DNA from: a virus
Lineage: Duplodnaviria; Caudoviricetes
DNA: 64,000 nucleotides
Reading direction: 5' to 3' (one strand)
IMG/VR virus record: IMGVR_UViG_3300034061_004620
The notes under the pieces are model-generated. The model saw only the letters and a list, made by a program, of their open reading frames with translations, ran no database searches and was not told the DNA's origin. The stretch's first letter is position 1. Each line of letters opens with the position of its first letter. Made by a program: the position numbers and the translations under genes. Below, in pieces: positions 8,984 through 60,422 of this stretch.

Positions 8984-10121
8984 AGAATATTTAACTAATC
9001 GTAACTTTTGCCCAATGCCGTGGACTGGATTAATGTATAATTTTGACGGTACAGTTAAAAATTGTATAAGAAGCTCAGCACCAATTGGTAATATACAAGA
9101 AAAGTCAATTGAACAAATTATTAATAATAATACAAATATCCACACTCGATCAGAAATGATTGCAAATAGGCCTGGCCCAAATTGTAATCCTTGTTATGAA
9201 TTAGAGAAAACAAAGAATAAATTTGATATAATAAGTGATAGAGTTTTTTATTTAAAAGAATTAAAACAAGTGCCAATGAGCACATATGAGCAGACACAAA
9301 ATTTTGACTTACATACAATTGACGTTAGATGGACAAATTTATGTAATTTTGCATGTGTTTATTGCGGCCCAGAATTTAGCAGTAAATGGGCCAGTGAATT
9401 GAATGAGCAGTTACAAGTGCCAACAGATCAAGCCAAAGAAAATTTTAAAAGTTTTGTCTTATCTCGCACAAAAAATTTAAAACATGTATATCTCGCCGGC
9501 GGCGAACCATTACTCATGAAAGAAAACTTGGAGCTATTGGAAAAATTATACATAGAAAATCCTGAAGTAAACCTAAGAATTAATACAAATTTAAGTAAAG
9601 TAGATACCAGTGTATTTGATCAAGTGTGCAAATTCAAAAATGTGCATTGGACTATTAGTGTTGAAACAATAGATAAAGAATACGAATATATTAGGTACGG
9701 TGGTAGTTGGACCGACTTTGTTGATAATTTAGCTGTGGTCAAAAGTTTAAATCATAAAATAACGTTCAACATGTTATATTTTTTATTAAATTATAGTTCA
9801 ATATTTGATTGTATAGAATATCTTCAGCAAATGGGATTTCATAATAACAGTTTTGTTATAGGAGCTTTAATTGGACCTGCTTTTTTTGACGTACGGCATT
9901 TACCAGGCAGCGTTTTAAACGACGTTGCTAAAGAGCTTGAAATTCGAATTTCACAATCACCAAAATTTTTACTTGAAAATAGTTACCAAAACTTATTACA
10001 ATACATAAAAAAACCAATGAACAAAGATTTAAAAAATTCCTTTACAATGATAAAAAATATTGATAAACGACGAAATCTAAACAGCAAAGACATTTTTCCA
10101 AAATTGTATGCTTATGAATGA
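8973..10121 (+). CDS. Radical SAM protein with twitch-like N-terminal domain
   Basis: FCPMPWTGL...GTVKNC, CNFACVYC, AGGEPLL, INTN. Confidence 0.92.
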   Translation: MDSKEYLTNRNFCPMPWTGLMYNFDGTVKNCIRSSAPIGNIQEKSIEQIINNNTNIHTRSEMIANRPGPNCNPCYELEKTKNKFDIISDRVFYLKELKQVPMSTYEQTQNFDLHTIDVRWTNLCNFACVYCGPEFSSKWASELNEQLQVPTDQAKENFKSFVLSRTKNLKHVYLAGGEPLLMKENLELLEKLYIENPEVNLRINTNLSKVDTSVFDQVCKFKNVHWTISVETIDKEYEYIRYGGSWTDFVDNLAVVKSLNHKITFNMLYFLLNYSSIFDCIEYLQQMGFHNNSFVIGALIGPAFFDVRHLPGSVLNDVAKELEIRISQSPKFLLENSYQNLLQYIKKPMNKDLKNSFTMIKNIDKRRNLNSKDIFPKLYAYE

Positions 10122-11286
10122 TATAAAATCAATTGGGTTTGCATTAGATCCCAATAATATACCTGCATTTCTATTAGATTGGGAGCTTACAAAACTTTGC
10201 AATTTAGATTGTAGTTATTGTGGAGTTGGCATAGAATGGGGAGGTCATGACAATAACACAAAGCATCCGGCAAAAAAAGAATGTTTTGACACTATAGATT
10301 TTATGTATGCCTATGTTGATTTATATATGAAAAATAAGAAACCAAGTCAACGCAAAGTTATTCTTAATGTTTACGGCGGGGAAAGTTTATTTCATCCAGA
10401 TATTGTAGAAATTTTGCATGAATGCAGAAATAGATATCAAATATATAAAAATAATTGGCATCTTACAATTACTTGTACAACTAATGGGGTGGTAGGATTC
10501 AATAATTGGAGACGAATTGTTCCCTTAATTGATGAATTTACTGTGAGTTATCACTCAGAGAATTTACCTAAGCAAAAACAACAATATAAAGATAATATTT
10601 TGTTTCTTAAGAAACAAAATAAAAGGTTTAAATGTGTAATTATGATGCATAACAATAAGGAATTATTTGAAGATTCTGAATCTATAGCTCAGTTTTGCAA
10701 CACACACGGTATTCGCTACGTGCTAAAGCCTTTGGATAATACCGGAGACGAATGGAAATATTCTATAGATCAATTTGAAAAAATGAAAACTTTTTGGATT
10801 AATACTGTGCCTGAATCCAAAAAAGATAATAACCGTAAAATTTTTCAAATTTTAAATGAAGGTACAAAGGTATCAAGTATACACGAAGGACGGGCTTGCT
10901 GCGGTGGAAGAAAATTAAGTATTAACAGCGATCTTAAATCAAATGTAACATATGTACCAAAACAAGGATTTCGAGATTGGTACTGTAGTGTAAATTGGTT
11001 TTTTCTATTTGTACAACAATTAACCGGTAACATTTATACAAATAAAGATTGCCGTACAAGTACAACTGGTCGGGTAGAACCATTGGGAAATTTAAGGTCA
11101 ACTAAAGAATTATTGGATAATGTAAAAACACAACTTGACAATCACTCTATGCCTGTTATAAAATGTGTAAAAGATATTTGCCAGTGTGGCTTCTGTGCTC
11201 CAAAAGCAGATAACATGAAAGATTATAAAGAATTATTTGATAGACAATTAGACAAGGAAAAATATCATGGCAACCAAACCCTTTGA
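10108..11286 (+). CDS. Radical SAM protein with Cys-rich C-terminal (SPASM-like) domain
   Basis: WELTKLCNLDCSYC, YGGESL, TTNG, SYHSE; C-terminal WYC...KDC...LGNL...CVKDICQCGFC. Confidence 0.9.
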   Translation: MLMNDIKSIGFALDPNNIPAFLLDWELTKLCNLDCSYCGVGIEWGGHDNNTKHPAKKECFDTIDFMYAYVDLYMKNKKPSQRKVILNVYGGESLFHPDIVEILHECRNRYQIYKNNWHLTITCTTNGVVGFNNWRRIVPLIDEFTVSYHSENLPKQKQQYKDNILFLKKQNKRFKCVIMMHNNKELFEDSESIAQFCNTHGIRYVLKPLDNTGDEWKYSIDQFEKMKTFWINTVPESKKDNNRKIFQILNEGTKVSSIHEGRACCGGRKLSINSDLKSNVTYVPKQGFRDWYCSVNWFFLFVQQLTGNIYTNKDCRTSTTGRVEPLGNLRSTKELLDNVKTQLDNHSMPVIKCVKDICQCGFCAPKADNMKDYKELFDRQLDKEKYHGNQTL

Positions 11287-12337
11287 TGTATCAAAATTTC
11301 GCAAAAGTATTACAAAAAGTATTGACGGTATCTCAGTTGGATTCAACGACCCAACAGATTGGATCAGCACAAACAACTACGCTCTTAACTATCTTATATC
11401 TGGAGACTTTAACAAGGGTATTCCAATGGGAAAGGTCACTGTATTTGCTGGCGAATCTGGTGCGGGCAAATCCTTTATCTGCTCAGGAAATCTTGTCAAG
11501 AACGCTCAAGAACAAGGTATCTATGTTATACTCATTGACACCGAAAACGCTCTTGATGAGGCTTGGTTACACGCACTCGGAGTGGATACTGCTGAGGACA
11601 AACTACTTAAACTTAATATGGCAATGATTGACGATGTGGCCAAAATGATTACTGAGTTTGTAAAAGAATACAAAACACTACCGGAAGACCAACGTCCCAA
11701 GGTGTTAATCGTGTTAGACAGTTTGGGCATGTTGCTCACCCCAACTGACGTAAATCAGTTCGAAGCAGGTGACTTGAAAGGTGACATGGGCCGTAAGCCC
11801 AAAGCACTGACTGCCTTGGTTCGTAACTGCGTTAACATGTTTGGCAGTTTAAATATTGGTCTGGTAGCAACCAACCATACCTATGCCAGTCAGGACATGT
11901 TTGATCCTGATGACAAGATCTCAGGTGGTCAAGGTTTTATCTATGCAAGTTCTATTGTAGTCGCTATGCGTAAGTTAAAGTTAAAAGAAGACGAAGATGG
12001 TAATAAAATTAGCGAAGTAAAAGGTATTCGTGCAGCATGCAAGATCATGAAAACACGTTATGCTAAACCGTTCGAATCAGTACAGGTCAAGATCCCTTAC
12101 GAACAGGGAATGAATCCATACTCTGGATTAGTTGACATGTTTGAAGGAAAAGGATTATTACAGAAAGAAGGTAATAGTCTTAAATACACCTTAGCAGATG
12201 GCACTGTAATTAAGCAGTTTCGTAAGGCCTGGGAGCGTAACGAAGGTGGCAGTCTTGATAGTGTAATGACTGACTATACTGCCAATCCACATCAACATCT
12301 TGCCGCAGAACACCAAAATACAGTAGATGATGAATGA
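11267..12337 (+). CDS. uvsX: RecA-like recombinase (UvsX)
   Basis: Walker A AGESGAGKS, Walker B VLDSLG, GDMGRKPKAL, SGGQGFIYASS. Confidence 0.96.
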   Translation: MATKPFDVSKFRKSITKSIDGISVGFNDPTDWISTNNYALNYLISGDFNKGIPMGKVTVFAGESGAGKSFICSGNLVKNAQEQGIYVILIDTENALDEAWLHALGVDTAEDKLLKLNMAMIDDVAKMITEFVKEYKTLPEDQRPKVLIVLDSLGMLLTPTDVNQFEAGDLKGDMGRKPKALTALVRNCVNMFGSLNIGLVATNHTYASQDMFDPDDKISGGQGFIYASSIVVAMRKLKLKEDEDGNKISEVKGIRAACKIMKTRYAKPFESVQVKIPYEQGMNPYSGLVDMFEGKGLLQKEGNSLKYTLADGTVIKQFRKAWERNEGGSLDSVMTDYTANPHQHLAAEHQNTVDDE

Positions 12338-13022
12338 GCTTAATTTGGTCAGCTCGGCAACTGTAACTAAACATAATCCTATAGTCAAAGTTAGGCCTTA
12401 TGTGCCATGTTTACAAATTGAGTGGATGATAAGTAAACGTTGCAATTTTGATTGTAGTTATTGTCCTCCAATTTGGCACGATAAAACTTCTAAGGACTTA
12501 ACATTAGATGAATTAAAAAATGCCTGGCTAAAAATTATAAAAGTATCAGAACACAAAACAGAACAAAAAATTCATTTAACAATTTTAGGTGGCGAGCCAA
12601 GTTTAAATAAAAATTTATTACCTTTTTTGCAATGGGCAAGAAATAATTTTTCAGATAGAATAGGTCAAATTGGCACTATTACTAACGGAAGTGCTAATTC
12701 AAATTTTTACACAGAATTAGTTAGTTATTGCGATTGGGTGACATTTTCTACTCACAGTGAGTTCATGAATGAGAGAAAATTTTTTAGAAACGTAATCAAA
12801 GCACACCGAGCAAGTAAAAAAAAGAATGCAATGGTAATGGTCAATTTGATGCAAGAATCATGGTTCAATGAAAGAATACATTTGTATCAAAAATTTTTAA
12901 ACAAATTTAATATTGCTAATTATATGCATCAAATTGAATATAACGAAGGATTCAACGAATTTAACGGAAAACGTGCAGATGTAAAACCGGTGAAATTAAT
13001 AAAAAAAATGAAATTTATATGA
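12327..13022 (+). CDS. Radical SAM core domain protein
   Basis: WMISKRCNFDCSYC, LGGEPS, ITNGS, FSTHSE. Resembles the N-terminal part of 10108..11286. Confidence 0.88.
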   Translation: MMNELNLVSSATVTKHNPIVKVRPYVPCLQIEWMISKRCNFDCSYCPPIWHDKTSKDLTLDELKNAWLKIIKVSEHKTEQKIHLTILGGEPSLNKNLLPFLQWARNNFSDRIGQIGTITNGSANSNFYTELVSYCDWVTFSTHSEFMNERKFFRNVIKAHRASKKKNAMVMVNLMQESWFNERIHLYQKFLNKFNIANYMHQIEYNEGFNEFNGKRADVKPVKLIKKMKFI

Positions 13023-17550: not shown

Positions 17551-18399
17551 ATGCAAAGACCTACTATGGAAATAACAACCATGATTGGTTGTTCCTTGAT
17601 GTGCAATTTTTGCCCTCAAGACAATTTACGAGACATGTATGGTAACGATGTCAAATACATGACTTTGGATACATTTAAAACAGCATTATCAAAAGTACCA
17701 AAAAATACCAGAATTGATTTTAGTGGCATGGCCGAAGCCTGGATCAATCCTGCGGCCACTGACATGTTAGAACATACTTTGGTATCAGGACACAATGTAG
17801 CTATCTATACAACTTTTTACAATTGGGATATTGGGACTGCTGAACGTGTTGTGCAGTTACTTTATCGTTATCGAGCACAGATCGAAGTACTTAGTGTGCA
17901 TTTTCCTGATGAATACGGTAATATGAAGGGATGGAAATATAGCACTGAATGGGAAGCTGTATTTCACATGGTAACCTCTGCGGTACAAGATGCTAATATT
18001 AAATTAGAAGCTATGACCATGAGCGATCATGGTAAGATACATAAGGATTTGCAGCATCTTGGGATCCAATTGTACAATTGGTTTGGGCACGACCGTGCTG
18101 GAAGTTTGAATAAAGAACAAGTTAAAGAACAACCAGTTCATTTTGTTACTAAACACGAACGCCCGGTGAGTTGTAGTAAGACTGTGAATTATGATCAACA
18201 CGTACTGCTACCCAATGGTGATGTAGTATTATGCTGCATGGATTATGATCTAAAACACGTGATTGGTAATTTGGTTAACGATTCCTATTTGGATTTGTTC
18301 ACCGGTGAACCCATGATAAATCTAATACGAGAAAATCAAAAAAATTGCTACAGTGCGGCAAGTTTATGTAAAAGTTGCACTGATGCTAAAATACATTGA
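17551..18399 (+). CDS. Radical SAM/SPASM-domain protein
   Basis: GCSLMCNFCPQ, FSGMAE; C-terminal CSK...LPNGDVVLCCMDY...IGNL...CKSC. Confidence 0.9.
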   Translation: MQRPTMEITTMIGCSLMCNFCPQDNLRDMYGNDVKYMTLDTFKTALSKVPKNTRIDFSGMAEAWINPAATDMLEHTLVSGHNVAIYTTFYNWDIGTAERVVQLLYRYRAQIEVLSVHFPDEYGNMKGWKYSTEWEAVFHMVTSAVQDANIKLEAMTMSDHGKIHKDLQHLGIQLYNWFGHDRAGSLNKEQVKEQPVHFVTKHERPVSCSKTVNYDQHVLLPNGDVVLCCMDYDLKHVIGNLVNDSYLDLFTGEPMINLIRENQKNCYSAASLCKSCTDAKIH

Positions 18400-37407: not shown

Positions 37408-37884
37408 ATGAAATATTTTGCTTACGGAATGAACACTAATTTAGAACAAATGGGACGCCGTTGTCCGACGGCTATCTGTTTGGGTCCTGCGTGTATTGAA
37501 GACTATGAATTGGTGTTCCGTACTCACGCCGACATAGCAGAATCCCCGGGCAGCATTTGTTATGGTGTTCTTTGGGACATCACAAAAGCAGATTTACAAG
37601 CATTAGATATGCTCGAAGGATATCCTTACTACTATACAAGATTTCGTGTGCGTGTAAATCTTGGAGATCATTTTGTGTATGCATTAACATACCAAATGAA
37701 TGATCAAACTTACGTTCAAGAACCCGGCGCAGGGTATTTAGAAATGGTGCGCGAAGGGTATCAAGAAAACAGCGTACCCACTTGTCAAATTGACCATGCA
37801 ATAAATATGGTATGCTCTTCATCAATCGGGACGAAAATGGAATATCCTACTACATGGTTACCAACGACGCAGGACTGTGTCTAA
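37408..37884 (+). CDS. Gamma-glutamylcyclotransferase (AIG2-like) family protein
   Basis: YFAYGMN, GVLW, LDMLEGYP..Y. Confidence 0.88.
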   Translation: MKYFAYGMNTNLEQMGRRCPTAICLGPACIEDYELVFRTHADIAESPGSICYGVLWDITKADLQALDMLEGYPYYYTRFRVRVNLGDHFVYALTYQMNDQTYVQEPGAGYLEMVREGYQENSVPTCQIDHAINMVCSSSIGTKMEYPTTWLPTTQDCV

Positions 37885-41715: not shown

Positions 41716-41762
41716 GCAGAACATCCGGGGTTTTTGTTAGCTCCTTTTACTTCCGGAATTTG

Positions 41763-41788
41763 GCCCTACTTAGGTAGGGCTTTTTTTT
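41763..41788 (+). terminator. Intrinsic terminator
   Basis: GCCCTAC-TTAG-GTAGGGC followed by T8. Confidence 0.9.
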
Positions 41789-41815
41789 GACTTTTCTGTT
41801 ACTAAGTAATATACT
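41787..41815 (+). promoter_or_regulatory. Sigma70-type promoter
   Basis: TTGACT-N17-TATACT; spacer contains TAAGTA. Confidence 0.65.
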
Positions 41816-41821
41816 TACGCT

Positions 41822-42973
41822 ATGAGAAAATTTTCGTCGGTTGAAGACTACATCGAAGTAATTAACGGTGATCGGGATGCTACCACTGGTCGACTCTACG
41901 GTTTATTTGACAGCAGGCCGCCTATAATAAATCTTGCCAGATACGATGTTCAGATTTTAGATAGCATGAGCCAAGCTACACAAAGTGGAAGGTCCTTGAC
42001 TGATAAACAAGCAGACTTGGCTGTCAAGATAGTACTCAAATATCGTAAACAATTAGAACGACAAGATATTGATGTAAGTCCGGTGGAGACTCCTAATTTT
42101 AGATTGGGTATAAGACAGATCGATAGACGTCGGCTTTTATATATTGAAAACGATTCTATTATTCTAAAGTTTCCATACGATACTATCCTAATAAATGATC
42201 TAAGAGACTTGGCAAAGATGAGTCAAGGTCGTTGGAGATTTGATAGCGATAATCGAAGTTGGGCATTGGCCTTGACTGAAATGAATGTAGTAGCAGCCAA
42301 CGGCTTTGCACAGAATCACAAATTTGAAATAGCACCTGAGTTTGAACGATACATAGAAGCAGTAGAAGCTTGTGAACAACAGCCTTATGAGATCAAGTTG
42401 TTTCGACACAACGACGGTCAATTTGCGATTACTAATGCAGCCCGGTCTTTAATTGAAGCTATAGATGACTGGACCAATTTGGATCAATTGGTGGATAGAT
42501 CCGCTGTATATGGTTATACTGTGGATGAATTATTGAGTTTAGATATAGCCACCAAGTACGGACCGCGTGTAGCTAACTTGATGACTGCACAAGAGAGCAA
42601 GTTTGCACCGACCAGTGATGAGACTGTATTTCATGATGTAATTAAGTATGCAGATATCACTGGAAGATATCCTATCTATGTATATGAACCAGACATGAGC
42701 GAAAGGTTACACAAGCATTTTGTTACACAATGTTTTAACTCAGAGGACGTATACCAAACACAAACATTGAAACCAAAAGAACTTGCCACAGATAAGAAGA
42801 TAATTTATTTTAACAAATTTAATGCACAATGGGACAAACCTATACCGTTGCTAATCAGCGGCCAAGGTATGATGCACGGAGGCGATAAAACTATTTTGTT
42901 GCAGAAAGCAGAAAAAGTTGTATACTTTGCTACAGAAGTGTATAATGTTAATACTATGAAGCGTAAAAACTAA
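41822..42973 (+). CDS. Hypothetical protein upstream of UvsW
   Basis: 383-aa ORF coupled to the helicase (TAATG). Confidence 0.85.
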   Translation: MRKFSSVEDYIEVINGDRDATTGRLYGLFDSRPPIINLARYDVQILDSMSQATQSGRSLTDKQADLAVKIVLKYRKQLERQDIDVSPVETPNFRLGIRQIDRRRLLYIENDSIILKFPYDTILINDLRDLAKMSQGRWRFDSDNRSWALALTEMNVVAANGFAQNHKFEIAPEFERYIEAVEACEQQPYEIKLFRHNDGQFAITNAARSLIEAIDDWTNLDQLVDRSAVYGYTVDELLSLDIATKYGPRVANLMTAQESKFAPTSDETVFHDVIKYADITGRYPIYVYEPDMSERLHKHFVTQCFNSEDVYQTQTLKPKELATDKKIIYFNKFNAQWDKPIPLLISGQGMMHGGDKTILLQKAEKVVYFATEVYNVNTMKRKN

Positions 42974-44427
42974 TGCAGGCCAAATTATTAATTAAAGACG
43001 AAGTCAATGTAAAAATTGAAGGCCTTGAACTTAATACAAGAACAGCCTTGGTAAAAAAATACAAGTATGAAATACCTGGCGCTCGTTATCAACCAAGTGT
43101 TAGACTTGGACGTTGGGACGGCAAAGTGCCCTTCTTTAATCTTGGCGGTACTACTTACATCAATCTACTGCCCGAAATCTTGCCTTATTTAGATGAACAA
43201 GGTTACGACGTCAAAGTAGAAGATGCCAGAAACTATCGTACCACATTTGAGTTTGCTATTGTGGATGAAAACACATATCAACACAAGACCTGGCCGAAAA
43301 ATCATCCTCGAGCCGGCCAACCCATAGTGCTTAGAGACTATCAACCTGAAATTATCAATAGGTTCTTGACCAACCCACAGTGCGTACAAGAAGTAGCAAC
43401 AGGCGCTGGTAAAACTATTATTACAGCAGCTCTGGCCGATGCTGTCAGCCAGTACGGTCGTACCATTATTATTGTGCCTAACAAAAGCCTTGTGACACAG
43501 ACCGAGGATGACTTTGTGAATCTTGATCTTGATGCAGGTGTATATTTTGGCGACAGAAAAGAATATAATAGAACACACACTATTTGCACTTGGCAGAGTC
43601 TAAACAACTTGTTAAAGACAACCAAGAATGCCGAAGCCGAAATCACTATAGGCGAGTTTTTAGAAGGTGTGGTAGCAGTTATAGTGGACGAAGTGCATCA
43701 GGCCAAGGCCGACGCATTAAAGACCTTACTAAGCGGTCCATTCGCACAAGTGCCTATACGGTGGGGACTTACAGGTACAATACCCAAAGAAGATTATGCA
43801 AGACAGAGCATTAATTGTATGCTGGGACCAGTAGTAGGACAACTAAGTGCCAGCGAGCTACAACAAGCCGGACACCTGGCCCAATGCCATGTTAACGTGG
43901 TACAGTTAGTGGATCATAAAGAGTACACAAACTATCAAAGTGAATTAAAATATCTAATAGAAACTGAAGAAAGACTCGACTACATTAGTCGTTTGATAAG
44001 TACTATTGTTGATTCAGGAAACACACTTATATTGGTAGATCGAATAAGTGCCGGACGAGCATTAGCAGAAAGATTACCCGGCAGCGTGTTTGTATCAGGA
44101 GCAACCAAAGCCGGGGAGCGCAAAGAACACTATGACGAAGTGGCAGAGGCGACAAATAAAATTATCATCGCCACTTACGGCGTTGCTGCTGTTGGTATCA
44201 ATATTCCCCGCATTTTTAATCTTGTTCTACTTGAGCCTGGCAAATCTTTTGTGCGTGTTATACAAAGTATTGGGCGTGGAATACGCCGTGCAGAGGATAA
44301 AGACTTTGTGCAAATATGGGATATAACAAGTACCTGTAAGTTCGCAAAACGACACCTAACAAAAAGAAAAGCTTTTTATAAAGAAGCTAACTATCCTTTT
44401 ACTGTAGAAAAGGCTGAGTGGGAATGA
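42973..44427 (+). CDS. uvsW: SF2 DNA helicase (UvsW-like)
   Basis: LRDYQ, ATGAGKT, VDEVH, GLTGT, ATYGVAAVGINIP, QSIGRGIR. Confidence 0.93.
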   Translation: MQAKLLIKDEVNVKIEGLELNTRTALVKKYKYEIPGARYQPSVRLGRWDGKVPFFNLGGTTYINLLPEILPYLDEQGYDVKVEDARNYRTTFEFAIVDENTYQHKTWPKNHPRAGQPIVLRDYQPEIINRFLTNPQCVQEVATGAGKTIITAALADAVSQYGRTIIIVPNKSLVTQTEDDFVNLDLDAGVYFGDRKEYNRTHTICTWQSLNNLLKTTKNAEAEITIGEFLEGVVAVIVDEVHQAKADALKTLLSGPFAQVPIRWGLTGTIPKEDYARQSINCMLGPVVGQLSASELQQAGHLAQCHVNVVQLVDHKEYTNYQSELKYLIETEERLDYISRLISTIVDSGNTLILVDRISAGRALAERLPGSVFVSGATKAGERKEHYDEVAEATNKIIIATYGVAAVGINIPRIFNLVLLEPGKSFVRVIQSIGRGIRRAEDKDFVQIWDITSTCKFAKRHLTKRKAFYKEANYPFTVEKAEWE

Positions 44428-44621
44428 GTTTTCAAATTGAAGATCGAGGTAATGGAACAAAATGGGTGGAAATTGATAATCATCGATTGCACATGCATGA
44501 AATCGCACATTGGTGTAAATTACACCAATGCGGTAAACAAGTTAACATACGAGCAATTAGTTTTAAAAATGATGAAGAACTAACAATGTTTCTTCTTAGA
44601 TGGCAAAGTCAATTACAATGA
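44418..44621 (+). CDS. Small hypothetical protein
   Basis: ISFKNDEELTMFLLRW; coupled overlaps on both sides. Confidence 0.7.
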   Translation: MGMSFQIEDRGNGTKWVEIDNHRLHMHEIAHWCKLHQCGKQVNIRAISFKNDEELTMFLLRWQSQLQ

Positions 44622-45421
44622 GAAAAAAACTAATGATTACCGGGTGTAGTTTTTCTGCACCCAGTACCAAGCCAGAGTATAAAGGAACAAGTTGGGGTGA
44701 GAAACTGGCCACCAAGCTTGATTGGGACTTGGTGAACTTGGCCAGACAAGGGATGAGTAACGGTGGCATTCGTGTTATGATAGACGAAATTATAAGGCAA
44801 CGACCAGACTTTGCTATTGTGGCACCAACATTTCATGATAGAATGGAAATCCCTGCTATCGGTGCACCTTACAATTGGGCAACTAATACTACATCATGGA
44901 ATACTCCTCTACAGCAACATTTACAAAACATCGATATCAAGAATGGATACAACCCAGATTTAGGAATTCAAAATATTAATTTTGCCAACGGTCCCTATAC
45001 AATGATATCCGAGACAATTTTTAGTTTGGCAGAAAATTATGATCACTTTTATAGATCTGCAAAATTAAACAAAGAAACTCAATTGGCGCTTAAACAATAT
45101 ATCAATCATTTGTATGACAGCAACTGGAAGTTACAGCAAGACCGTTGGCTTATTAGCGACGGAATTTTTAGATTACATGCTGCTGGTATTCCTTTTCTTG
45201 TTGTGGCGTGTAATATTTGGACCAGTGATACTATAAGAGATGCATTTCCTGACAGCATTTCTGATATACATTTTACATTAAATTATGAAGACACACCTGC
45301 GTATTCTACAAACGCTTATCCTTTTGAAGGGGAAGATCCGGGTTATCACGGCAACGAACTGAGTCAAGAATATCTTGCTAATAGATACTATTTACATATA
45401 AGGAACAATATAAATGACTGA
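44618..45421 (+). CDS. SGNH-hydrolase-like protein
   Basis: ITGCSFS (GxS block I), NLARQGMSN (block II Gly), YHGN near the C-terminus. Confidence 0.5.
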   Translation: MRKKLMITGCSFSAPSTKPEYKGTSWGEKLATKLDWDLVNLARQGMSNGGIRVMIDEIIRQRPDFAIVAPTFHDRMEIPAIGAPYNWATNTTSWNTPLQQHLQNIDIKNGYNPDLGIQNINFANGPYTMISETIFSLAENYDHFYRSAKLNKETQLALKQYINHLYDSNWKLQQDRWLISDGIFRLHAAGIPFLVVACNIWTSDTIRDAFPDSISDIHFTLNYEDTPAYSTNAYPFEGEDPGYHGNELSQEYLANRYYLHIRNNIND

Positions 45422-46355
45422 CAACACAATTACACATTCAGAATCTGATTTTGATTGGTTTAAACACAACGGCATCTACATGCCAATGATTAATGATACA
45501 GGTAGAAATGTTTATTATAAAAAAGCAATAGAAGCTGCTGTGCCCGGTAAAGTAGTTTGCGACATCGGCACAGGAACAGGACTATTAAGCATATTGGCTG
45601 CAAAAGCTGGTGCCAAAAAAGTTTACAGTGTTGAAATGGACCCCGGACGAGCAGATTTTGCAAAAAAAATAATTGACAAAATAGGTTTGTCTGAAACCAT
45701 TGAGGTAATTAATCAAAATTTTTTCGAAACCAACATAGACGCAGAAATTTTTATATCCGAAACATTAGGGACACCAATTTTCAACGAAGATATAATTGCT
45801 ATTAGTCAACATGCAGTAAGAAAAGGTGGAACTTTTCTTCCAGGCAGTTTAGATTTGCACATAGAATTATATGATGATCATCCTATTTTTCCTTTGGTTA
45901 TGACGGAGTCTGCTGCATTTGAATTTCAGCCAGACATTGATATAGATCCAACATTTGAGAGTATAATTAATAATACGTTTCAAGCACAACATCCGTTGAG
46001 TGATACAGTATATAGAGCAGGCAAAATACATAATCTTTTTACGTTACTACCAAGGTTCACGGATCTTAAACTTAAAAAATTTTACGAAACAGAACCACTG
46101 CGAATTGATTTAAACACTAAGGTAGATATTAACAATATCAAAATTACTATTCCTGCAGACAAACTAAAGACAGGAAACACATTTGTTGCAGTTTTATTCT
46201 GGACAGCTAACATGTACCAGGACATAAGAATGAATGTTAAAGAAACTTGGTGGGGAAATCCTGCCAAAGTTATTTTACCACATGTAAGAAAGCGCGGCTC
46301 TGATCTTACAATGTGGTATGATCCTGAAATCCAGGATTGGAGATTACAATATTAA
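45414..46355 (+). CDS. PRMT-like SAM-dependent methyltransferase
   Basis: MINDTGRNVYY, motif I VCDIGTGTGLLS, double-E loop ISETLGTPIFNE, THW-like TWWGN in a beta-rich C-terminal half. Confidence 0.75.
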   Translation: MTDNTITHSESDFDWFKHNGIYMPMINDTGRNVYYKKAIEAAVPGKVVCDIGTGTGLLSILAAKAGAKKVYSVEMDPGRADFAKKIIDKIGLSETIEVINQNFFETNIDAEIFISETLGTPIFNEDIIAISQHAVRKGGTFLPGSLDLHIELYDDHPIFPLVMTESAAFEFQPDIDIDPTFESIINNTFQAQHPLSDTVYRAGKIHNLFTLLPRFTDLKLKKFYETEPLRIDLNTKVDINNIKITIPADKLKTGNTFVAVLFWTANMYQDIRMNVKETWWGNPAKVILPHVRKRGSDLTMWYDPEIQDWRLQY

Positions 46356-46356
46356 G

Positions 46357-46860
46357 ATGAGAATACTTACTTTAGATAACATAGCGTACGAGCTTAACGA
46401 AATTCCAGATGAAGTGGAAGACATGAGGTTTGCTGTATTAGACAACAGCGATCCTCGTACACCTGATTATTTTTACATACCTTTAATCTTTTTAGAAAGT
46501 TTCAATAGTCCAGCACTTGTACTAAAAATAGGAGATAATGTTATTAAAATGCCGGTTGACTGGCACGTATTAATAGGCGAACCAGATCTTGGTGATTTAG
46601 AAGTAGTGCCTTTGACAAGTATCAATGATCGAGGATTCAGTGTTTTCTGCTTCAATCCACTCACAAGTTTTAAACCTGAATTTGCTCAAATTGAAATAGT
46701 GGATATATATCAAGACGTCAAATGGTATTTTCCAAAACTCAAGCCCGGGCAACTGTTAGCTATTCCTTTAGAAACCGGAAAGTCAAAACCGTTATGTGCC
46801 TATTTTATTAAGGAAATAAGTAGACAAAGCGAGGTGGTTGATTATGCAAAATGTTGGTAA
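46357..46860 (+). CDS. Conserved-looking hypothetical protein, possibly a degenerate Hint-fold
   Basis: Beta-rich 167 aa whose strand pattern resembles Hint domains; catalytic residues absent. Confidence 0.7.
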   Translation: MRILTLDNIAYELNEIPDEVEDMRFAVLDNSDPRTPDYFYIPLIFLESFNSPALVLKIGDNVIKMPVDWHVLIGEPDLGDLEVVPLTSINDRGFSVFCFNPLTSFKPEFAQIEIVDIYQDVKWYFPKLKPGQLLAIPLETGKSKPLCAYFIKEISRQSEVVDYAKCW

Positions 46861-47389
46861 GGCAGTAGTTGTTGTAGCACATCCTGATGACTGTATAATT
46901 TTTGCACTACCTTTTATTAAAAACCATCCTCATTTTAAGTGGCATATTATATATCTGACCTATAATGAAAGAGATCCTCGAGCGCAAGAAGTAACAAAAT
47001 TTTGGAACAAACAAAATGTTTCAACTGAATTCTTGGGATTTGTTGATAATTACCAGGATCAAGAAACACAAACTCTCAACTTTTGGACACAGAATGACGC
47101 AGAAATTGCAATTACTAATTCAATTTCTCAGCATGGTCCCGATATCGTGGTCACACACAACCACGACGGTGATTATGGACACATACATCACAAAATAGTA
47201 CACTATGCAGTTGACACATTAGATATTCCGCAAGTGTATTTTGCAAGTACATTTAATCTAACTGATACATTTAAAGCCGACGATTATGATTTGAAACAAT
47301 TGCCATTACATCAAGAAGTAATACAGGGATTCCAAGATCGTTTGATTGGTAGATACATAATAACTGACCAAGCAAGGCAGTTGATATGA
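46844..47389 (+). CDS. PIG-L/LmbE-family deacetylase
   Basis: VVAHPDD and THNHDGDYGHIHH. Confidence 0.85.
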   Translation: MQNVGKAVVVVAHPDDCIIFALPFIKNHPHFKWHIIYLTYNERDPRAQEVTKFWNKQNVSTEFLGFVDNYQDQETQTLNFWTQNDAEIAITNSISQHGPDIVVTHNHDGDYGHIHHKIVHYAVDTLDIPQVYFASTFNLTDTFKADDYDLKQLPLHQEVIQGFQDRLIGRYIITDQARQLI

Positions 47390-48116: not shown

Positions 48117-48786
48117 GTGTAAATACTGTGAGCGACTGTTTAGGCGAGAAAGCACACTCACAGCTCATTTATGCGAGCCAAAACGCCGATGGCAACAAGA
48201 AACAGAAACAGGAGTTCAATTTGGGCTTAGAGCGTATCTGCAATTTTATGAAACTACACAAGGTAGCGCACAACTTAAAAGCTACACTGACTTCGTTGCA
48301 AGTCCGTATTACAATGCTTTTGTTAGGTTCGGTAGATACTTGGTTGCTATTCGCTGTATTAACAGCAACAGCTTTATCAGTTGGTTATTGAAGAACAATA
48401 AAAAATTAGATCATTGGTGCAAGGACAAGTTCTACGAAGAATGGCTTTATGAGTATATTAAAAAGGAAGCAGTCCAGGATGCGCTGGAACGCAGCCTCCG
48501 AACCATGGAGGAGTATGCCATTGGAGATAGTGGGATTACTACTTTCAGCCATTATTTTAAGTACGGTAATCATAATAGGATTTGTCATCATATTACCACT
48601 GCTCGCGTTAGTCCTTGGGTTGTTTACAACTGCAATAGTGGTATTGAGTTTCTTGAGCAACTTCATGAGGAGCATTTGGCCATTGTTCTTCCTTATCTTG
48701 ATCCTGATTATTGGAATCGTAAGTTCCGGGATTACGTGGCCGATGTAGAATGGTGCAAACACATCTTAAAAGCAGCAGGCTTATGA
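48073..48786 (+). CDS. Zinc-finger-containing hypothetical protein
   Basis: FKCKYCERLFRRESTLTAHLC (C-x2-C-x12-H-x-C). Exact start uncertain. Confidence 0.75.
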   Translation: MSMDGMTEESSPNFKCKYCERLFRRESTLTAHLCEPKRRWQQETETGVQFGLRAYLQFYETTQGSAQLKSYTDFVASPYYNAFVRFGRYLVAIRCINSNSFISWLLKNNKKLDHWCKDKFYEEWLYEYIKKEAVQDALERSLRTMEEYAIGDSGITTFSHYFKYGNHNRICHHITTARVSPWVVYNCNSGIEFLEQLHEEHLAIVLPYLDPDYWNRKFRDYVADVEWCKHILKAAGL

Positions 48787-49376
48787 AATTTACCAGTGAT
48801 ATTGATATTGATGTGGCCAACAGAGATCAAGCACTTGCATTGATTAAACATGTAGATGCAAGTATTATACGCGATGGCAAAATAGCTAAACATAATACAG
48901 GTGCATACTTTACAGAAATTCCCGTTGATCCTTTTACTGGACGAGCAAGTTTAGATTATGAAGAAGCAGAAAAGCGTGGGTATATCAAGCTTGATATTCT
49001 TAATGTAGGGTTATATCAACAGGTACGATCTGAAACGCATTTGCAAGAATTAATGAGTCAAGAGCCATTATGGGACTTGTTACGTGCGCCTGATTTTTGC
49101 AGTCAGTTGATACACATAGGTTCGCATCACGACACACTAATGCGAATGCCCGAGCCTGTTGATAGTATTCCAAGACTGGCCATGTTCCTTGCTATAATAC
49201 GCCCAGCAAAGCGTCATTTAATTGGAAAATCATGGGCAGAAGTTGCAGAAACTGTTTGGGAGCGACCTGCTGGAGACGAATACTATTTTAAAAAAGCACA
49301 TGCTGTAGGTTATGCACACTTGGTAGCAGTCAACATGAACTTGATTTGTGAACAAGTCAGCTACGGATACAGCTAA
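48783..49376 (+). CDS. Minimal DNA polymerase III alpha-like (family C) catalytic core, 197 aa
   Basis: SDIDID, KHNTG, GYIKLDIL, LAIIRPA and YFKKAHAVGYA correspond to the DnaE motifs PDIDxD, HAAG, KxDxL, LxRPG and FNKSHAxxYA. Confidence 0.8.
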   Translation: MKFTSDIDIDVANRDQALALIKHVDASIIRDGKIAKHNTGAYFTEIPVDPFTGRASLDYEEAEKRGYIKLDILNVGLYQQVRSETHLQELMSQEPLWDLLRAPDFCSQLIHIGSHHDTLMRMPEPVDSIPRLAMFLAIIRPAKRHLIGKSWAEVAETVWERPAGDEYYFKKAHAVGYAHLVAVNMNLICEQVSYGYS

Positions 49377-55202: not shown

Positions 55203-55907
55203 TTGTTTTATTTAATAACAACTTTAATTCTAACACACATTACCATAGCCTGTGTGACACTATACCTACATCGCAGTCAAGCACATCGTGGTGTCACATT
55301 TCATCCTGTGGTAGCCCACTTTATGCGAGCCTGGTTATGGCTAACTACGGGCATGGTCACTCGACAATGGGTTGCTGTACATAGAAAACATCACAGATTC
55401 TGCGAACAAGCGGAAGATCCACACAGTCCGGTACATTATGGTATATGGAGAGTCTTACTAAAAGGAGCACTACTTTATAATGAAGCCAGCAAAGATAAAG
55501 CAATGGTTAGTGCTTACGGCAGCGGCACTCCTGATGATTGGATCGAGCACCATGTATACACGCCTCACAGTAGACTTGGCATTGGCCTTTGCCTTGTGCT
55601 CAATATCATCGTCTTCGGTTGGGTGGGTGCCATAATATGGTTGGTACAAATGCTGTGGATACCCTTATGGGCGGCCGGAGTAATTAATGGCGTAGGACAC
55701 TGGTGGGGTTATCGTAACGGTGACACCAGAGACCAAAGTAGAAACATTTTACCAATTGGTATCTTGATTGGCGGCGAAGAGTTGCATTCTAATCATCATT
55801 TAGACCCAGCCAGCCCTAAATTATCACTGCGTTGGTGGGAATTTGATATTGGTTGGTTCTACATTCGAGTTTTACAATCATTAAAGTTGGCTAAACTTAA
55901 AAATTAG
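55203..55907 (+). CDS. Fatty-acid (acyl-CoA/acyl-lipid) desaturase
   Basis: Three His boxes (HRSQAH, HRKHH, HSNHH), transmembrane helices, WWEFDIGW; TTG start after AAGGA. Confidence 0.92.
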   Translation: MFYLITTLILTHITIACVTLYLHRSQAHRGVTFHPVVAHFMRAWLWLTTGMVTRQWVAVHRKHHRFCEQAEDPHSPVHYGIWRVLLKGALLYNEASKDKAMVSAYGSGTPDDWIEHHVYTPHSRLGIGLCLVLNIIVFGWVGAIIWLVQMLWIPLWAAGVINGVGHWWGYRNGDTRDQSRNILPIGILIGGEELHSNHHLDPASPKLSLRWWEFDIGWFYIRVLQSLKLAKLKN

Positions 55908-55921
55908 TATACAATAACACG

Positions 55922-56947
55922 ATGTTAGACTCCGTCCAGCACCAGGTTTTGCAATTACTGCCTGCCCGCAAAAAGACAGGGCAAAACGGCTGGACCAGTT
56001 TTAATGCACCTTGCTGTGTACACAATGGAGAAACGGCTGACACAAGAGGTCGCGGTGGTGTTAAAGCAAATGCAGGGCAAGTCAGTTATCACTGCTTCAA
56101 CTGCGGGTATACCGCCAGCTTCATTCCCGGTCGCCATTTAACTTTCAAGTTTAGAAAATTGTTGGCATGGTTGGGTGCAGATGATCTAACTATACGTCGT
56201 TTAGTAATCGAAGCAGTAAGACTAAGAGAACTTGTAGCACCCGATGAACTTGAACGGGTTCCAGAAGAAGAGATTGTTTATGAAGCAAGAACATTACCCG
56301 ACCAAGCACGTAATGTTGTTGAACTGGCTAATTTTTACAGCCTTGGAGATTACAATAATGTGCCCGCAGAATTGCTGGCAGCAATAGAGTATGTACATCG
56401 CAGAGCCATTGATTTAAATAAGTACAAATTTTACTGGACTCCTGAACAAGCATACAATTTACATCGTAGGATTGTTATTCCGTACTATTATCGTGGCAAG
56501 ACGGTAGGATACACCAGTAGATCTATTGTAGACGGAATAAAACCCAAGTATTGGAGTAGTCATCCCGCAGACTTTGTGTTTAATTTAGATATGCAAAAGC
56601 CAGATAGCAAATTTGTCATTGTGTGCGAAGGACCGTTTGATGCCATGAGTGTAGATGGCGTATCAGTTAGTGGTGCAGAAATATCAGACACACAAGTAGA
56701 TCAAATTGATAGATTGCAACGTGAAGTCGTTGTAGTACCTGACACAGATCGTGCAGGACGTAAACTCGTTGATAGAGCTATAGAAGCTGGTTGGACTGTG
56801 AGTTTTCCTGTATGGCAGGACACCTGTAAAGACATTAACGATGCTGTGGTTAAATATGGTAAACTGTTTGTACTTAAGAGCATACTGGCGGCGAGGGAAA
56901 CAAGCAAGCTCAAGATTGAATTGAAGAAAAAAAAGTTATATGCTTGA
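55922..56947 (+). CDS. gp61: DNA primase (gp61-like: Zn finger plus TOPRIM)
   Basis: NAPCCVH...YHCFNC, VCEGPFDA, PDTDRAG, KDIND. Confidence 0.88.
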   Translation: MLDSVQHQVLQLLPARKKTGQNGWTSFNAPCCVHNGETADTRGRGGVKANAGQVSYHCFNCGYTASFIPGRHLTFKFRKLLAWLGADDLTIRRLVIEAVRLRELVAPDELERVPEEEIVYEARTLPDQARNVVELANFYSLGDYNNVPAELLAAIEYVHRRAIDLNKYKFYWTPEQAYNLHRRIVIPYYYRGKTVGYTSRSIVDGIKPKYWSSHPADFVFNLDMQKPDSKFVIVCEGPFDAMSVDGVSVSGAEISDTQVDQIDRLQREVVVVPDTDRAGRKLVDRAIEAGWTVSFPVWQDTCKDINDAVVKYGKLFVLKSILAARETSKLKIELKKKKLYA

Positions 56948-58397
56948 CATTGTAATCATAAACGTACCTGGCACAATCTCAAGAACTGCACCTGCTGCCC
57001 CTGCAATTTTAAAGGCGAGTATTGAAAAAAACGGATTTACATGTAAAACGATCGACTTCAATATAGAATTTTATCACTCTAAACATGCTAATCTTAAGAA
57101 TATTGAAAATTATTTTTTAACAGAGCTGAATACCGAAGTAATCCAAGAAGCTAAGAATATTGTTAGCAAATATGTTGATAGAATAATCAAGTTAAAACCA
57201 AAATTTGTTGGTATCAGTGTTTTTACGTATCAGAATAAAGTTGCTACAAAACTTTTCTGCCAAGAACTTAAAAAACACACCAATATTAAAATAATTCTTG
57301 GTGGCCAAGGATTGGCTGACGGTGGTATTTTAGGTCATCAGGGATTTGCAAAACAATTATTAAATGAAAATTTAATTGATTTTTATATCAAAAGTGAAGG
57401 TGAAAATTCAATAGTTGAGTTGCTAAAGGGCAATTTTGAATACCCAGGAATTAATTCAGACACATTTCAACAAATTGACAATTTAGATTCTTTACCGATT
57501 CCTGACTATTCTGACTATAATTTAGATATGTATGTTGATTCTTTACCTATTACAGGTAGTAGAGGATGTGTGAGATCGTGTTCGTTTTGTGACATACATG
57601 ATCATTGGTCTTACAAATTGAGAAAAGGCGAAGCAGTAGCTAATGAAATAATAGAATTATACAAAAAATATAATATAAAAAACTTTATGTTTACTGACAG
57701 TTTGGTTAATGGCAGTTTGAAAGAATTCAAAATATTTTGTAAATTATTAGCCGACTTTAATAGGCAGAATGATGTGAAATTGACATATAGTGGCCAATAT
57801 ATTGTGAGATCGCCGTCCCAGCTGGATGATGAATATTGGAAAAATTTGGCTATGTCTGGCGCTCAATCTTTGGCTATTGGAGTCGAAACCGGGAGTGATC
57901 GGGTAAGACAGCATATGAATAAAAAATTTACTAATCGGGATCTTGACTATACTATGGAAATGTTAGATAGATACAATATTACCTGTACATTTCTAATGAT
58001 CTTTGGATATCCTACCGAAACCGAAGAAGACTATCAAGCAACACTTGATATGTTCAAAAAGTACAAAAAATATGCTAATAAAATAATTACCAATATAAAT
58101 TTTGGATCTACGTTGGGTATTCTTCCTGGTACGCCATTATTTAATGGTGCTCAAGAATTTAATATTCAATTAGATAGACACGAAAACAATTGGGTCGCTT
58201 TAGACAATGAAAGTTTAACTTTGGAAGAAAGACTTAGAAGAAGAAATCATGCTAAAGAATATGTATTGTCTTTAGGCTATCAAATTCCAGATAGTGGCCA
58301 TGACAATGTATTGGACATCTTAAAAGAACATATTCCAGCTTTTGAGAAAAGAAATAAAATTAAAAAAATGATTAGAATCAAGGAGGCGATATCATGA
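56940..58397 (+). CDS. B12-binding radical SAM enzyme (class B-like)
   Basis: N-terminal cobalamin-binding domain (VGISVF...ILGG...GEGE-like), SRGCVRSCSFC, FTDSLVNG, GVETGS, FGYPTET. Confidence 0.9.
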   Translation: MLDIVIINVPGTISRTAPAAPAILKASIEKNGFTCKTIDFNIEFYHSKHANLKNIENYFLTELNTEVIQEAKNIVSKYVDRIIKLKPKFVGISVFTYQNKVATKLFCQELKKHTNIKIILGGQGLADGGILGHQGFAKQLLNENLIDFYIKSEGENSIVELLKGNFEYPGINSDTFQQIDNLDSLPIPDYSDYNLDMYVDSLPITGSRGCVRSCSFCDIHDHWSYKLRKGEAVANEIIELYKKYNIKNFMFTDSLVNGSLKEFKIFCKLLADFNRQNDVKLTYSGQYIVRSPSQLDDEYWKNLAMSGAQSLAIGVETGSDRVRQHMNKKFTNRDLDYTMEMLDRYNITCTFLMIFGYPTETEEDYQATLDMFKKYKKYANKIITNINFGSTLGILPGTPLFNGAQEFNIQLDRHENNWVALDNESLTLEERLRRRNHAKEYVLSLGYQIPDSGHDNVLDILKEHIPAFEKRNKIKKMIRIKEAIS

Positions 58398-59005
58398 TTG
58401 ATAAGACTAAACAATTTTTGAATGTGTTTTCTCCGCTTGAAATAGCACAGATCACTACTGCAATGAGCAAATTGCAGGATCAACCAAATGATGGAGCTTT
58501 TTTTGCTTACACAAATGGATTTAAACAAAATGATTATATTTTTCCATTTATAAAAAAAATTGTGCTAAACAAAATTGAAAAGTTAATTGACGAAAAGATC
58601 TGTTTAACAGTAGGTGTGTATCTAAAAGAGGAAATTCCTTGGCTCATCCACACTGATTACGTAAAAGGCGATTTGAAACCAAAAGGTGCATTTTTAATTC
58701 CGTTGTGCAATGAAAATACTCATACTGTAATCTTTAACGAAGAGTGTTTAACAAATTTTGCCCACTTTTTAGAAGAAAATAAAAAATTAGAAAACAATGC
58801 AAAAAATCTCTATAATACATTATGCGGACACGAAACAGAAAATCGTTTAGAGTATGTGAGTTTACACGCTGCATACAAATGGCACCCGGGATCAGTAATA
58901 TATTGGGATAGAAAATTATTACATTGTAGCGATAATTTTCTAATAAATGGTGTAAAACAAAAAACCGCACTTGTACTGTTTACAAATGACAATGAAAAAT
59001 TATAA
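58394..59005 (+). CDS. Putative 2OG-Fe(II) oxygenase-fold protein
   Basis: IHTD (HxD), FLIPL, GSVIYWDRKLLHCS (distal His). Confidence 0.6.
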   Translation: MIDKTKQFLNVFSPLEIAQITTAMSKLQDQPNDGAFFAYTNGFKQNDYIFPFIKKIVLNKIEKLIDEKICLTVGVYLKEEIPWLIHTDYVKGDLKPKGAFLIPLCNENTHTVIFNEECLTNFAHFLEENKKLENNAKNLYNTLCGHETENRLEYVSLHAAYKWHPGSVIYWDRKLLHCSDNFLINGVKQKTALVLFTNDNEKL

Positions 59006-60422
59006 TCCAGACGTACAACGACTATTTTTAGAAATGATGTTGGAAGACGCAGAAACATACGTGCGTGTTCAAAACATTTATAATGCAGACAACTTTGATC
59101 GCAGTCTTAGAGAAGCTGCACGTTTTATGAAAAAACACAGTGATGATCATAAAACTCTGCCTACTCGAGAACAGATACTGGCAGCTACAGGAGTAGAATT
59201 GAGATCAGTCCCAGATTTGCGTGAAGGACACTATGATTGGTTCCTTACTGAGTTTGAAGGATTCAGTCGTAAACAAGAACTGGAGCGAGCTATCTTAAAA
59301 GCCGCAGACATGATCGAACAAGGCAACTTTGATCCTGTAGAAAAATTGATCAAGGATGCTGTACAAATCAGTCTTACCAAAGACATGGGTACGGACTATT
59401 TTGAAGATCCCCGTGCTCGACTAATGAAAATCAAAAGCAACAACGGCCAAGTGAGTACAGGTTGGCCTACCATGGATCAACGATTGTTTGGCGGTATGAA
59501 TAGAGGCGAGCTTAATATTTTTGCCGGTGGTAGTGGATCTGGTAAATCTCTTTTCATGCAAAATATCGCGATTAACTGGATCACCGCTGGACTCAATGGT
59601 GTGTTCCTTACACTTGAGCTTAGTGAAGAGTTGTGTGCAATGCGTATGGATGCGATGGTTGCGAACTGTAGCACGAAAGAAATCTTTAAGGATTTAGACA
59701 CACTGGAAATGAAGATACGCATGGTAGGTAAGAAGAGTGGTAAATTGCGGATCAAGTACATGCCAGCACAAAGTAATGTTAATCATATTCGTGCATACTT
59801 AAAAGAATTAGAAATTCAAACAGGTCAAAAGACAGACTTTATTATGGTCGACTACCTTGATCTTGTGATGCCGGTAAGTGCCAAGGTTAGCCCCAGCGAT
59901 TTATTTGTTAAAGACAAATATGTGTCAGAAGAACTGAGAAACTTGGCAAGAGAATTTAACATACTAATGATTACTGCGTCGCAGTTGAACAGATCAGCAG
60001 TAGAAGAAATTGAATTTGACCATAGTCATATCTCGGGTGGTATCAGTAAAATTAACACAGCGGATAATGTGTTTGGTATCTTTACTTCAAGGGCTATGCG
60101 TGAGCGCGGTCGTTATCAAATACAGTTGATGAAAACTCGTAGTTCAAGTGGCGTAGGTCAAAAGGTAGATCTTGAGTTCAATATTGAAAGTTTACGTATT
60201 ACAGATCCTGGTGAAGATGCACAAAGTGAGAACGGTGGGCAAGGTTTTCGTACAAGTACACAAATAATGGATCAAATCAAAACATCTGCTACAACATCAA
60301 GTCCGCCCATGATTGCTGCTAAACCCAAACCAGGATTTGATATTGAAAAATCTGTACAAGCCAATGTTGATAGTACAAAACTCAAGCAAATGCTTGCAAG
60401 CCTAAAAACTAAAACCGAATAA
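58992..60422 (+). CDS. gp41: Replicative DnaB-like helicase (T4 gp41-like)
   Basis: Walker A AGGSGSGKS, TLELSE, Walker B MVDYLD, TASQLNRS, MKTR. Confidence 0.94.
   Translation: MKNYNPDVQRLFLEMMLEDAETYVRVQNIYNADNFDRSLREAARFMKKHSDDHKTLPTREQILAATGVELRSVPDLREGHYDWFLTEFEGFSRKQELERAILKAADMIEQGNFDPVEKLIKDAVQISLTKDMGTDYFEDPRARLMKIKSNNGQVSTGWPTMDQRLFGGMNRGELNIFAGGSGSGKSLFMQNIAINWITAGLNGVFLTLELSEELCAMRMDAMVANCSTKEIFKDLDTLEMKIRMVGKKSGKLRIKYMPAQSNVNHIRAYLKELEIQTGQKTDFIMVDYLDLVMPVSAKVSPSDLFVKDKYVSEELRNLAREFNILMITASQLNRSAVEEIEFDHSHISGGISKINTADNVFGIFTSRAMRERGRYQIQLMKTRSSSGVGQKVDLEFNIESLRITDPGEDAQSENGGQGFRTSTQIMDQIKTSATTSSPPMIAAKPKPGFDIEKSVQANVDSTKLKQMLASLKTKTE

Follow-up and report, generated by a model that had tools for sequence, protein, structure and literature searches.

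A 64-kb stretch of a roughly 352-kb jumbo-phage genome (Caudoviricetes; IMG/VR record IMGVR_UViG_3300034061_004620), here called the window, encodes a product that belongs to the protein arginine methyltransferase (PRMT) superfamily. The gene lies at 45414-46355 on the + strand and specifies an enzyme of 313 amino acids (aa) that depends on S-adenosylmethionine (SAM). An initial annotation, made from the letters of the window, had called the product a PRMT-type enzyme and not PrmA. That assignment is borne out by sequence, by the full-length fold, by a barrel domain that was matched separately, by an invariant double-E loop and by a predicted arm-mediated dimer. The substrate is, on a modest balance of probability, the arginine side chains of proteins. 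Other substrates have to be weighed, and this is done below.

Judged from sequence comparison, the resemblance of the product to PRMTs is far beyond chance. When all PDB sequences are searched with phmmer, the best 60 matches listed are all PRMTs. PRMT7 heads the list (E = 8e-20) and is followed by PRMT8, Hmt1/PRMT1, CARM1, PRMT6, PRMT9, PRMT3 and PRMT2, with alignments that span the N-terminal helix through the double-E loop. A profile built from 25 family members improves the PDB match to PRMTs (E = 7e-27). The N-terminal half is also found when hhalign compares the family with 12 PRMT homologs of the canonical, THW-bearing kind (E = 1.3e-41 at probability 100, over columns 10-162), and AlphaFold2 (AF2) models it well, with a predicted local distance difference test score (pLDDT) of 84-97 across residues 31-160.

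The residues that matter in PRMTs are conserved in the phage family, as judged from an alignment of 25 homologs with identities down to 50%. The pre-motif helix described in the initial annotation (M-x-x-D-x-x-R-x-x-x-Y) is present as M25, D28, R31 and Y35, and N27, D28, R31, N32 and Y35 are invariant. In motif I the invariant positions are D50, G52, G54 and G56. The post-I residue E74 corresponds to the glutamate that binds the SAM ribose in PRMTs. In motif III no homolog departs from G139, F141 or P143, and G138 is almost invariant. The double-E loop was rightly recognised in the initial annotation, but its spacing is E-x8-E and not x7. S115, E116, T117 and E125 are invariant in this loop, and SETLGTPIFNE aligns residue for residue with SEWMGYCLFYE of PRMT8, which has the same x8 spacing. 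One family member (P0130) carries SETIGAHIYNE, and a [ST]E-x8-E pattern is present in most remote matches. In other words, the full PRMT set of SAM-binding and double-E residues is invariant in the phage family.

Selection appears to have maintained the gene. Among homologs the nonsynonymous divergence (dN) is 0.15-0.35 and the synonymous divergence (dS) is saturated, so that omega is at most about 0.05-0.16. The C-terminal domain evolves about twice as fast as the N-terminal domain, and purifying selection is strongest on the catalytic domain. From these codon comparisons, the gene is under purifying selection.

The predicted fold points the same way. The AF2 model of the full-length protein has a pLDDT of 80.9. 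Its C-terminal half is beta-rich, as had been claimed, and remains so when the domain is modelled in isolation. Foldseek, the check suggested in the initial annotation, returns PRMTs for all of the top 50 matches over about 320 columns. With VIA-align the model matches TbPRMT7 with Z = 21.0 and a root-mean-square deviation (rmsd) of 3.3 over 252 residues (model residues 23-313), and CARM1, PRMT6, PRMT1 and PRMT9 with Z of about 20-21 (within model residues 22-313).

The lack of a PRMT beta-barrel had been named in the initial annotation as what would speak against a PRMT, and this was checked by folding the C-terminal domain alone. Residues 143-313 (171 residues) were modelled from 32 homologs, giving a pLDDT of 88.3, and 48,161 representative chains were searched without a Foldseek pre-filter. 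The top 14 chains are all PRMT barrels (PRMT9, 7, 6, 5, 2, 1, 3, 10 and CARM1), with 108-144 of the 171 residues aligned and Z of 7.4-4.8, which in absolute terms is moderate. Unrelated immunoglobulin-like folds rank below them, at Z of 4.4 or less. Foldseek with the isolated domain again gives PRMTs for all of the top 50, with E-values that are weak (best 3.9e-3). Because the structural match is clear while a sequence match is absent, the models indicate that the PRMT barrel is present but strongly diverged.

A helical insertion in the C-terminal domain is the putative dimerisation arm. It contains the most conserved segment of that domain, S166-E182, in which S166, A168, E170, F171, P173 and E182 are invariant. 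Prediction with two copies scores 0.58, against 0.00 for the best control; the mark for this score is reached by 20 of 30 proteins solved as one-chain pairs and by 1 of 23 solved as a single chain. The runs share at least 65% of contacts, with a partner pLDDT of at least 82. In the model, arm residues 172-185 of one copy pack against the second copy's helices 27-36, 55-64 and 86-90. Such packing of arm on Rossmann domain is the arrangement of PRMT dimers, as in the PRMT1 and Hmt1 structures. A homodimer of this PRMT style is predicted, with a score that may reflect likeness only, because PRMT dimers are among the solved structures. Of the six sequence and structure marks of PRMTs that were considered, four are found (motif I with the post-I acidic residue, the pre-motif helix, the double-E loop and the barrel), a fifth, the dimer, is predicted, and the THW loop is the one that is lacking. 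The features are collected in Table 1.

Table 1. Positions in the window of the methyltransferase gene, its parts and its operon neighbours.
Feature	Position	Strand	Basis
UvsW-type helicase, upstream operon anchor	42973..44427	+	Pfam ResIII, DEAD, Helicase_C, UvsW_N
273-aa open reading frame (ORF), translationally coupled to the methyltransferase	44600..45421	+	virus-only Atlas clusters
Ribosome-binding site AAGGAA, 8 nt before ATG	45401..45406	+	read from sequence
PRMT-superfamily SAM-dependent methyltransferase gene	45414..46355	+	ORF of 313 aa plus stop; sequence and full-length fold matches to PRMTs
N-terminal SAM-binding (Rossmann) domain, residues 1-145	45414..45848	+	hhalign to canonical PRMTs
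Pre-motif-I helix M25-x2-D28-x2-R31-x3-Y35 (PRMT helix alpha-Y)	45486..45518	+	aligns to MLKDxxRTxxY of PRMT8, PRMT7, PRMT9
Motif I VVCDIGTGTG, residues 47-56	45552..45581	+	aligns to VLDVGSGTG of PRMTs
Post-I acidic residue E74	45633..45635	+	invariant; aligns to Glu of PRMT8 segment VFGIE
Double-E loop S115-E116-x8-E125 (I114-S-E116...E125, ISETLGTPIFNE)	45756..45788	+	PRMT8 alignment
Motif III KGGTFLP, residues 137-143	45822..45842	+	aligns to PRMT8 KPGGLMFP
C-terminal beta-barrel domain, residues 146-313	45849..46352	+	fold of isolated domain; Foldseek
Helical insertion, residues about 157-200, putative dimerisation arm	45882..46013	+	conservation and dimer model
T278-W279-W280-G281 at the PRMT THW-loop position	46245..46256	+	colinear non-significant profile alignment
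phrog_11279 protein	46357..46860	+	PHROG E 1.2e-45, matching from residue 14 of a longer ORF
PIG-L/LmbE-family deacetylase	46838..47389	+	Pfam PF02585, E 4.6e-13
Small DNA-polymerase-related protein (mini-DnaE), 208 aa, downstream end of block	48750..49376	+	phrog_11778 'DNA polymerase', E 2.4e-62

The window, part of a jumbo-phage genome, encodes a T4-type terminase, RecA/UvsX, UvsW, DnaB and a primase, and the methyltransferase is a fixed member of a replication operon that runs from uvsW to mini-DnaE. Gene order was read from 80 viral loci, the counts for uvsW and mini-DnaE being based on loci with enough flank. The colinear order is (AAA), 383-aa ORF, UvsW, (273-aa ORF), methyltransferase, PIG-L and phrog_11279 in either order, orf154, zinc-finger protein and mini-DnaE. 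uvsW stands upstream of the methyltransferase in nearly all of these loci and mini-DnaE is colinear in most. The phrog_11279 gene is downstream in 79 of 80, and in 66 of the 80 a PIG-L gene follows within 1.5 kb. The initial annotation had placed the gene in the replication operon after uvsW; it is downstream of uvsW across viral loci but not directly adjacent, since a 67-aa ORF and the 273-aa ORF lie between the two in the window.

The gene itself is present as annotated, with its own ribosome-binding site. Its ATG overlaps the stop of the 273-aa ORF as ATGACTGA, and the phrog_11279 gene begins 1 nt past its TAA. These two junctions place it in a tightly coupled + strand operon. The 273-aa ORF is found upstream in 46 of 55 loci. 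It has no match in Pfam, PHROG, NCBIfam or the PDB, and a weak DUF6071 lead from the Atlas is the only one. The order of PIG-L and phrog_11279 flips between subclades, and in one locus (L003) the PIG-L gene (6936-7484) overlaps the methyltransferase stop by 4 nt.

A scan for promoters and terminators did not rise above the shuffled background, save for one site upstream of the operon. There a strong terminator-like hairpin (8 pairs, then T7) occupies 41762-41781, and a promoter-like site comes right after it, at 41787-41815. Going by sequence, transcription of the unit to which uvsW and the methyltransferase belong probably starts here. Also upstream of the operon is a gene for a GGACT/AIG2-like gamma-glutamyl cyclotransferase (37408-37884), the position of which is kept in a relative of 56% identity (L003, 1-337).

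Elsewhere in the window there is an unusually dense cluster of radical-SAM genes (ORFs 7463-8410, 8973-10121 with SPASM, 10108-11286 and 12327-13022), which flank a RecA/UvsX-like gene (11267-12337), and a further SPASM-domain protein is encoded at 17551-18399. SPASM enzymes usually modify peptides or proteins. A B12-binding radical-SAM enzyme (56940-58397) is encoded between a Toprim primase (55922-56947) and a DnaB-like helicase (58971-60422), a position that hints at a step, among the replication genes, in which nucleic acid or a cofactor is modified. A gene for a membrane protein of the fatty-acid-desaturase family (55203-55907; PF00487, E = 8.9e-14) lies immediately upstream of the primase gene.

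Where else does the family occur? A word-indexed search of metagenomes yields 215 homologs at E up to 1e-3, on contigs of up to 380 kb, and IMG/VR holds 144 loci with family members. With the family profile, 29 clusters are reached at E below 1e-30, and PRMT-like proteins at greater distance run into the thousands. In the Atlas, the cluster to which the methyltransferase belongs is 95% viral and has several further viral clusters nearby. Nearly identical DNA comes from lake and freshwater metagenomes of 16 studies; no RNA data set is among the sequencing runs listed, which has no bearing on expression. A pattern scan of one genome from each of 185,579 GTDB species, which covers the family's own motifs only, found no relative. 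Likewise, none of 50,697 GenBank phage records matched the protein by tblastn at 1e-5 (at E up to 1 the matches were confined to the generic motif I), and the same records gave nothing when a relative at middle distance (P0148) was the query. In these searches the family is found in viruses alone and in no cultured phage; its carriers are a clade of jumbo phages from fresh water and the sea.

A second, larger PRMT-like group was seen in the same searches (P0142-P0163 and similar; L005, 2399-3391). Its members have about 310-345 aa and a double-E loop of the form TET..(N/D)LW.E, with no THW. One of them adjoins a 5'-3' exonuclease gene among small phage-like ORFs. Given this second group and the several more viral Atlas clusters, PRMT-fold enzymes may be widespread in phage replication modules.

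What does the enzyme methylate? One clue is the double-E loop, which in PRMTs binds the guanidinium of arginine. Since this loop is invariant, the substrate is likely to be a guanidino group. In the mechanism proposed here, the enzyme consists of a Rossmann SAM-binding domain and, after it, a PRMT beta-barrel that is divergent and bears a helical arm for dimerisation. SAM would be held by the D28/R31/Y35 helix, motif I and E74, and E116 and E125 would be placed to clamp the guanidinium, so that its terminal nitrogen could attack the methyl group of SAM. The targets would be arginine side chains of phage replication or recombination proteins, or of host proteins. As a fixed and translationally coupled member of the uvsW-to-mini-DnaE operon, the gene would be expressed along with those for replication.

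That the guanidino group sits on a protein, and not on free arginine, has slightly better than even chances. Two things count in favour of a protein: the only constant neighbours of the gene in the 80 loci are replication genes, and the predicted architecture is that of protein-modifying PRMTs. In addition, the 64-kb window contains no biosynthetic partner for arginine, amidino or N-N-bond chemistry and no enzyme that uses methyl-arginine, so that a macromolecular target is favoured over a metabolite pathway.

Several observations weigh against a protein target. Pfam PRMT_C and PRMT5_C give no match to residues 140-313 at E up to 1, and the hhalign alignment to canonical PRMTs ends at residue 162, leaving the barrel without a significant profile alignment. 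Moreover, the THW loop, which helps to shape the peptide site in PRMTs, is degenerate in the phage family. The initial annotation had described a THW-like TWWG. A positional counterpart does exist at residues 278-281, but the histidine is absent from T278-W279-W280 and the loop is not conserved. G281 alone is at least 90% conserved, and the triplet varies among TWW, TIW, CIW, CWW and TWF. The profile-profile alignment of the C-terminal domain is colinear and sets TWWG on the THW column, but it is non-significant (E = 0.016-0.087), and the alignment is for that reason a positional hint only. Some PRMTs also deviate from THW, and among the matches found here PRMT7-like proteins carry DHW and other variants SHW. 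A scan of all ORFs of the window for RG/RGG-rich substrates revealed nothing convincing; one RGRGG, in the primase, was all that turned up. Among reviewed proteins the best structural match, SznE/StzE, methylates free L-arginine. Finally, the activity of every member of the phage family is a prediction from sequence and models.

The SznE match raises the question of whether the phage enzyme could be a guanidino N-methyltransferase of small molecules, acting on free L-arginine, agmatine or another guanidino metabolite. This is unlikely, and it is the strongest of the alternatives. SznE/StzE (A0A411EW25) is an arginine N(omega)-methyltransferase of Streptomyces achromogenes. Like the phage enzyme it is a prokaryotic single-module protein of the PRMT fold and of similar size (361 aa), and it aligns over 316 residues (E = 5.3e-18; template modelling (TM) scores 0.64/0.56) with 20% of the sequence identical in that structural alignment. 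The substrate of SznE is free L-arginine, and its gene belongs to a biosynthetic cluster together with that of SznF (PMC11705231); a relative of SznE has been used to locate a gene cluster for N-methylagmatine groups (PMC12637814). The degenerate THW loop would suit such a substrate, as would the frequent presence next to the gene of the PIG-L deacetylase and of the enzyme-sized 273-aa ORF. Perhaps a role of this kind feeds a phage-directed modification, or depletes or alters a host metabolite. However, whereas SznE works in a biosynthetic cluster with SznF, the phage gene lies in a replication operon, and no SznF-like, amidinotransferase or decarboxylase partner is found in the window. The constant neighbours are all replication genes, and some of the clade does without PIG-L or the 273-aa ORF. 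Nor does the structural match decide the matter: SznE, PRMT9 and PRMT7 score within one order of magnitude of each other, a near tie, so that these scores do not discriminate.

What if the PRMT fold has been recruited to a substrate other than arginine? This might be a nucleobase or a hypermodified DNA or RNA base, with an exocyclic nitrogen of amidine- or guanidine-like character, or a different residue of a protein. The gene has replication genes around it, homologs are named 'predicted RNA methylase' by their sources, and the B12 radical-SAM, several SPASM radical-SAM and sugar-nucleotide genes of the window suggest unusual modification chemistry. The divergent parts of the protein, the barrel and the THW loop, are also the ones that shape the substrate site. 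Set against this, both of the guanidinium-clamping glutamates are invariant, and no nucleic-acid methyltransferase appears among the best 60 sequence matches listed or the top 50 structural matches in the PDB. Matches to RrnaAD, TRM5 and FtsJ fall below the Pfam cut-offs and cover motif I only. Such a change of substrate is improbable.

A catalytically dead scaffold that only binds a partner, like the PRMT1 prozyme of trypanosomes, would fit the degenerate THW loop and the tight coupling of the gene to its neighbours. It is very improbable, as the family keeps every SAM-binding and catalytic motif residue unchanged and purifying selection is strongest on the catalytic domain.

Last comes the label that the family carries in databases. 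The best Pfam match of the protein is PF06325 PrmA (37.4 bits, where 22 is the cut-off), and the names given by the Atlas to the cluster and by the sources to homologs read PrmA or 'predicted RNA methylase', much as the initial annotation had foreseen of automated pipelines. PrmA methylates lysine and the N-terminus of ribosomal protein L11, using an N-terminal L11-binding domain of its own. What it has in common with the phage enzyme is the class I SAM-binding core: the match is limited to profile positions 161-256 of 296, which is this generic core, and with 32.3 bits the protein falls far short of the cut-off of NCBIfam prmA (TIGR00406), which is 183.15. No PrmA occurs among the best 60 sequence matches listed or the top 50 structural PDB matches, all of which are PRMTs, and the phage protein has the PRMT barrel and double-E loop. 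An ordinary PrmA-type L11 lysine methyltransferase is therefore hardly credible and was rejected; the labels 'PrmA' and 'RNA methylase' are wrong for this family.

Protein arginine side chains thus stay the preferred substrate, and it is instructive to set the enzyme beside the known PRMTs. With PRMT7 and PRMT9 (also PRMT1, 6, 8 and CARM1) it has in common the two-domain core of a Rossmann domain and a beta-barrel with arm. It also shares with them the D..R...Y helix, the post-I Glu, motifs I and III and the identically spaced E-x8-E, and an arm-to-Rossmann dimer is predicted for it. It differs from eukaryotic PRMTs in being phage-encoded, in having neither an N-terminal targeting domain nor a tandem module and in being only about 20% identical to them, with a barrel that escapes Pfam PRMT_C and profile alignment. 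Where they have THW, it has a variable TWW, TIW or TWF.

The fold is not confined to eukaryotes. MJ1452 of Methanocaldococcus jannaschii, an archaeal orphan of 259 aa and thus shorter than the phage enzyme, has a compact fold that resembles PRMTs and matches the model with a TM by hit of 0.73 and an rmsd of 4.1, which places the PRMT fold outside eukaryotes. A literature search found no paper that mentions it. In an Atlas cluster from Actinomycetota, 52% of the members carry PRMT_C. PRMT-fold proteins have also been predicted in Legionella (PMC10117894). The statement of the initial annotation that PRMTs are mainly eukaryotic has to be softened accordingly: Actinomycetota, archaea, Legionella (by prediction) and several viral clusters hold proteins of this fold.

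To our knowledge, arginine methylation by PRMT-fold enzymes has been treated as a matter of eukaryotic regulation, and we know of no use of it by bacterial viruses. The literature search yielded no paper that describes a phage-encoded PRMT, and a comparative survey of jumbo phages mentions none (PMC7824862). What is new here is a conserved, virus-only lineage of single-module PRMTs with a barrel that is diverged in the models, a non-canonical THW position and a predicted function. It is tentatively put forward that these are the first protein arginine methyltransferases of bacterial viruses, methylating replisome or recombination proteins or host proteins as a core enzyme of the replication module in a jumbo-phage clade that is widespread in aquatic habitats.

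The family recurs in jumbo phages of lake and marine metagenomes from many studies. T4 is known to use arginine ADP-ribosylation. If the phage enzymes do methylate proteins, they would add, alongside that modification, a new type of post-translational modification to phage-host biology. Arginine methylation might then tune nucleic-acid binding or block arginine-directed attacks by the host, which would make it a mechanism of phage takeover or of counter-defence. The enzyme would also offer a minimal single-module PRMT of 313 aa for mechanistic and evolutionary study. Should free arginine or a modified base be the substrate instead, the family would point to a new phage metabolism.

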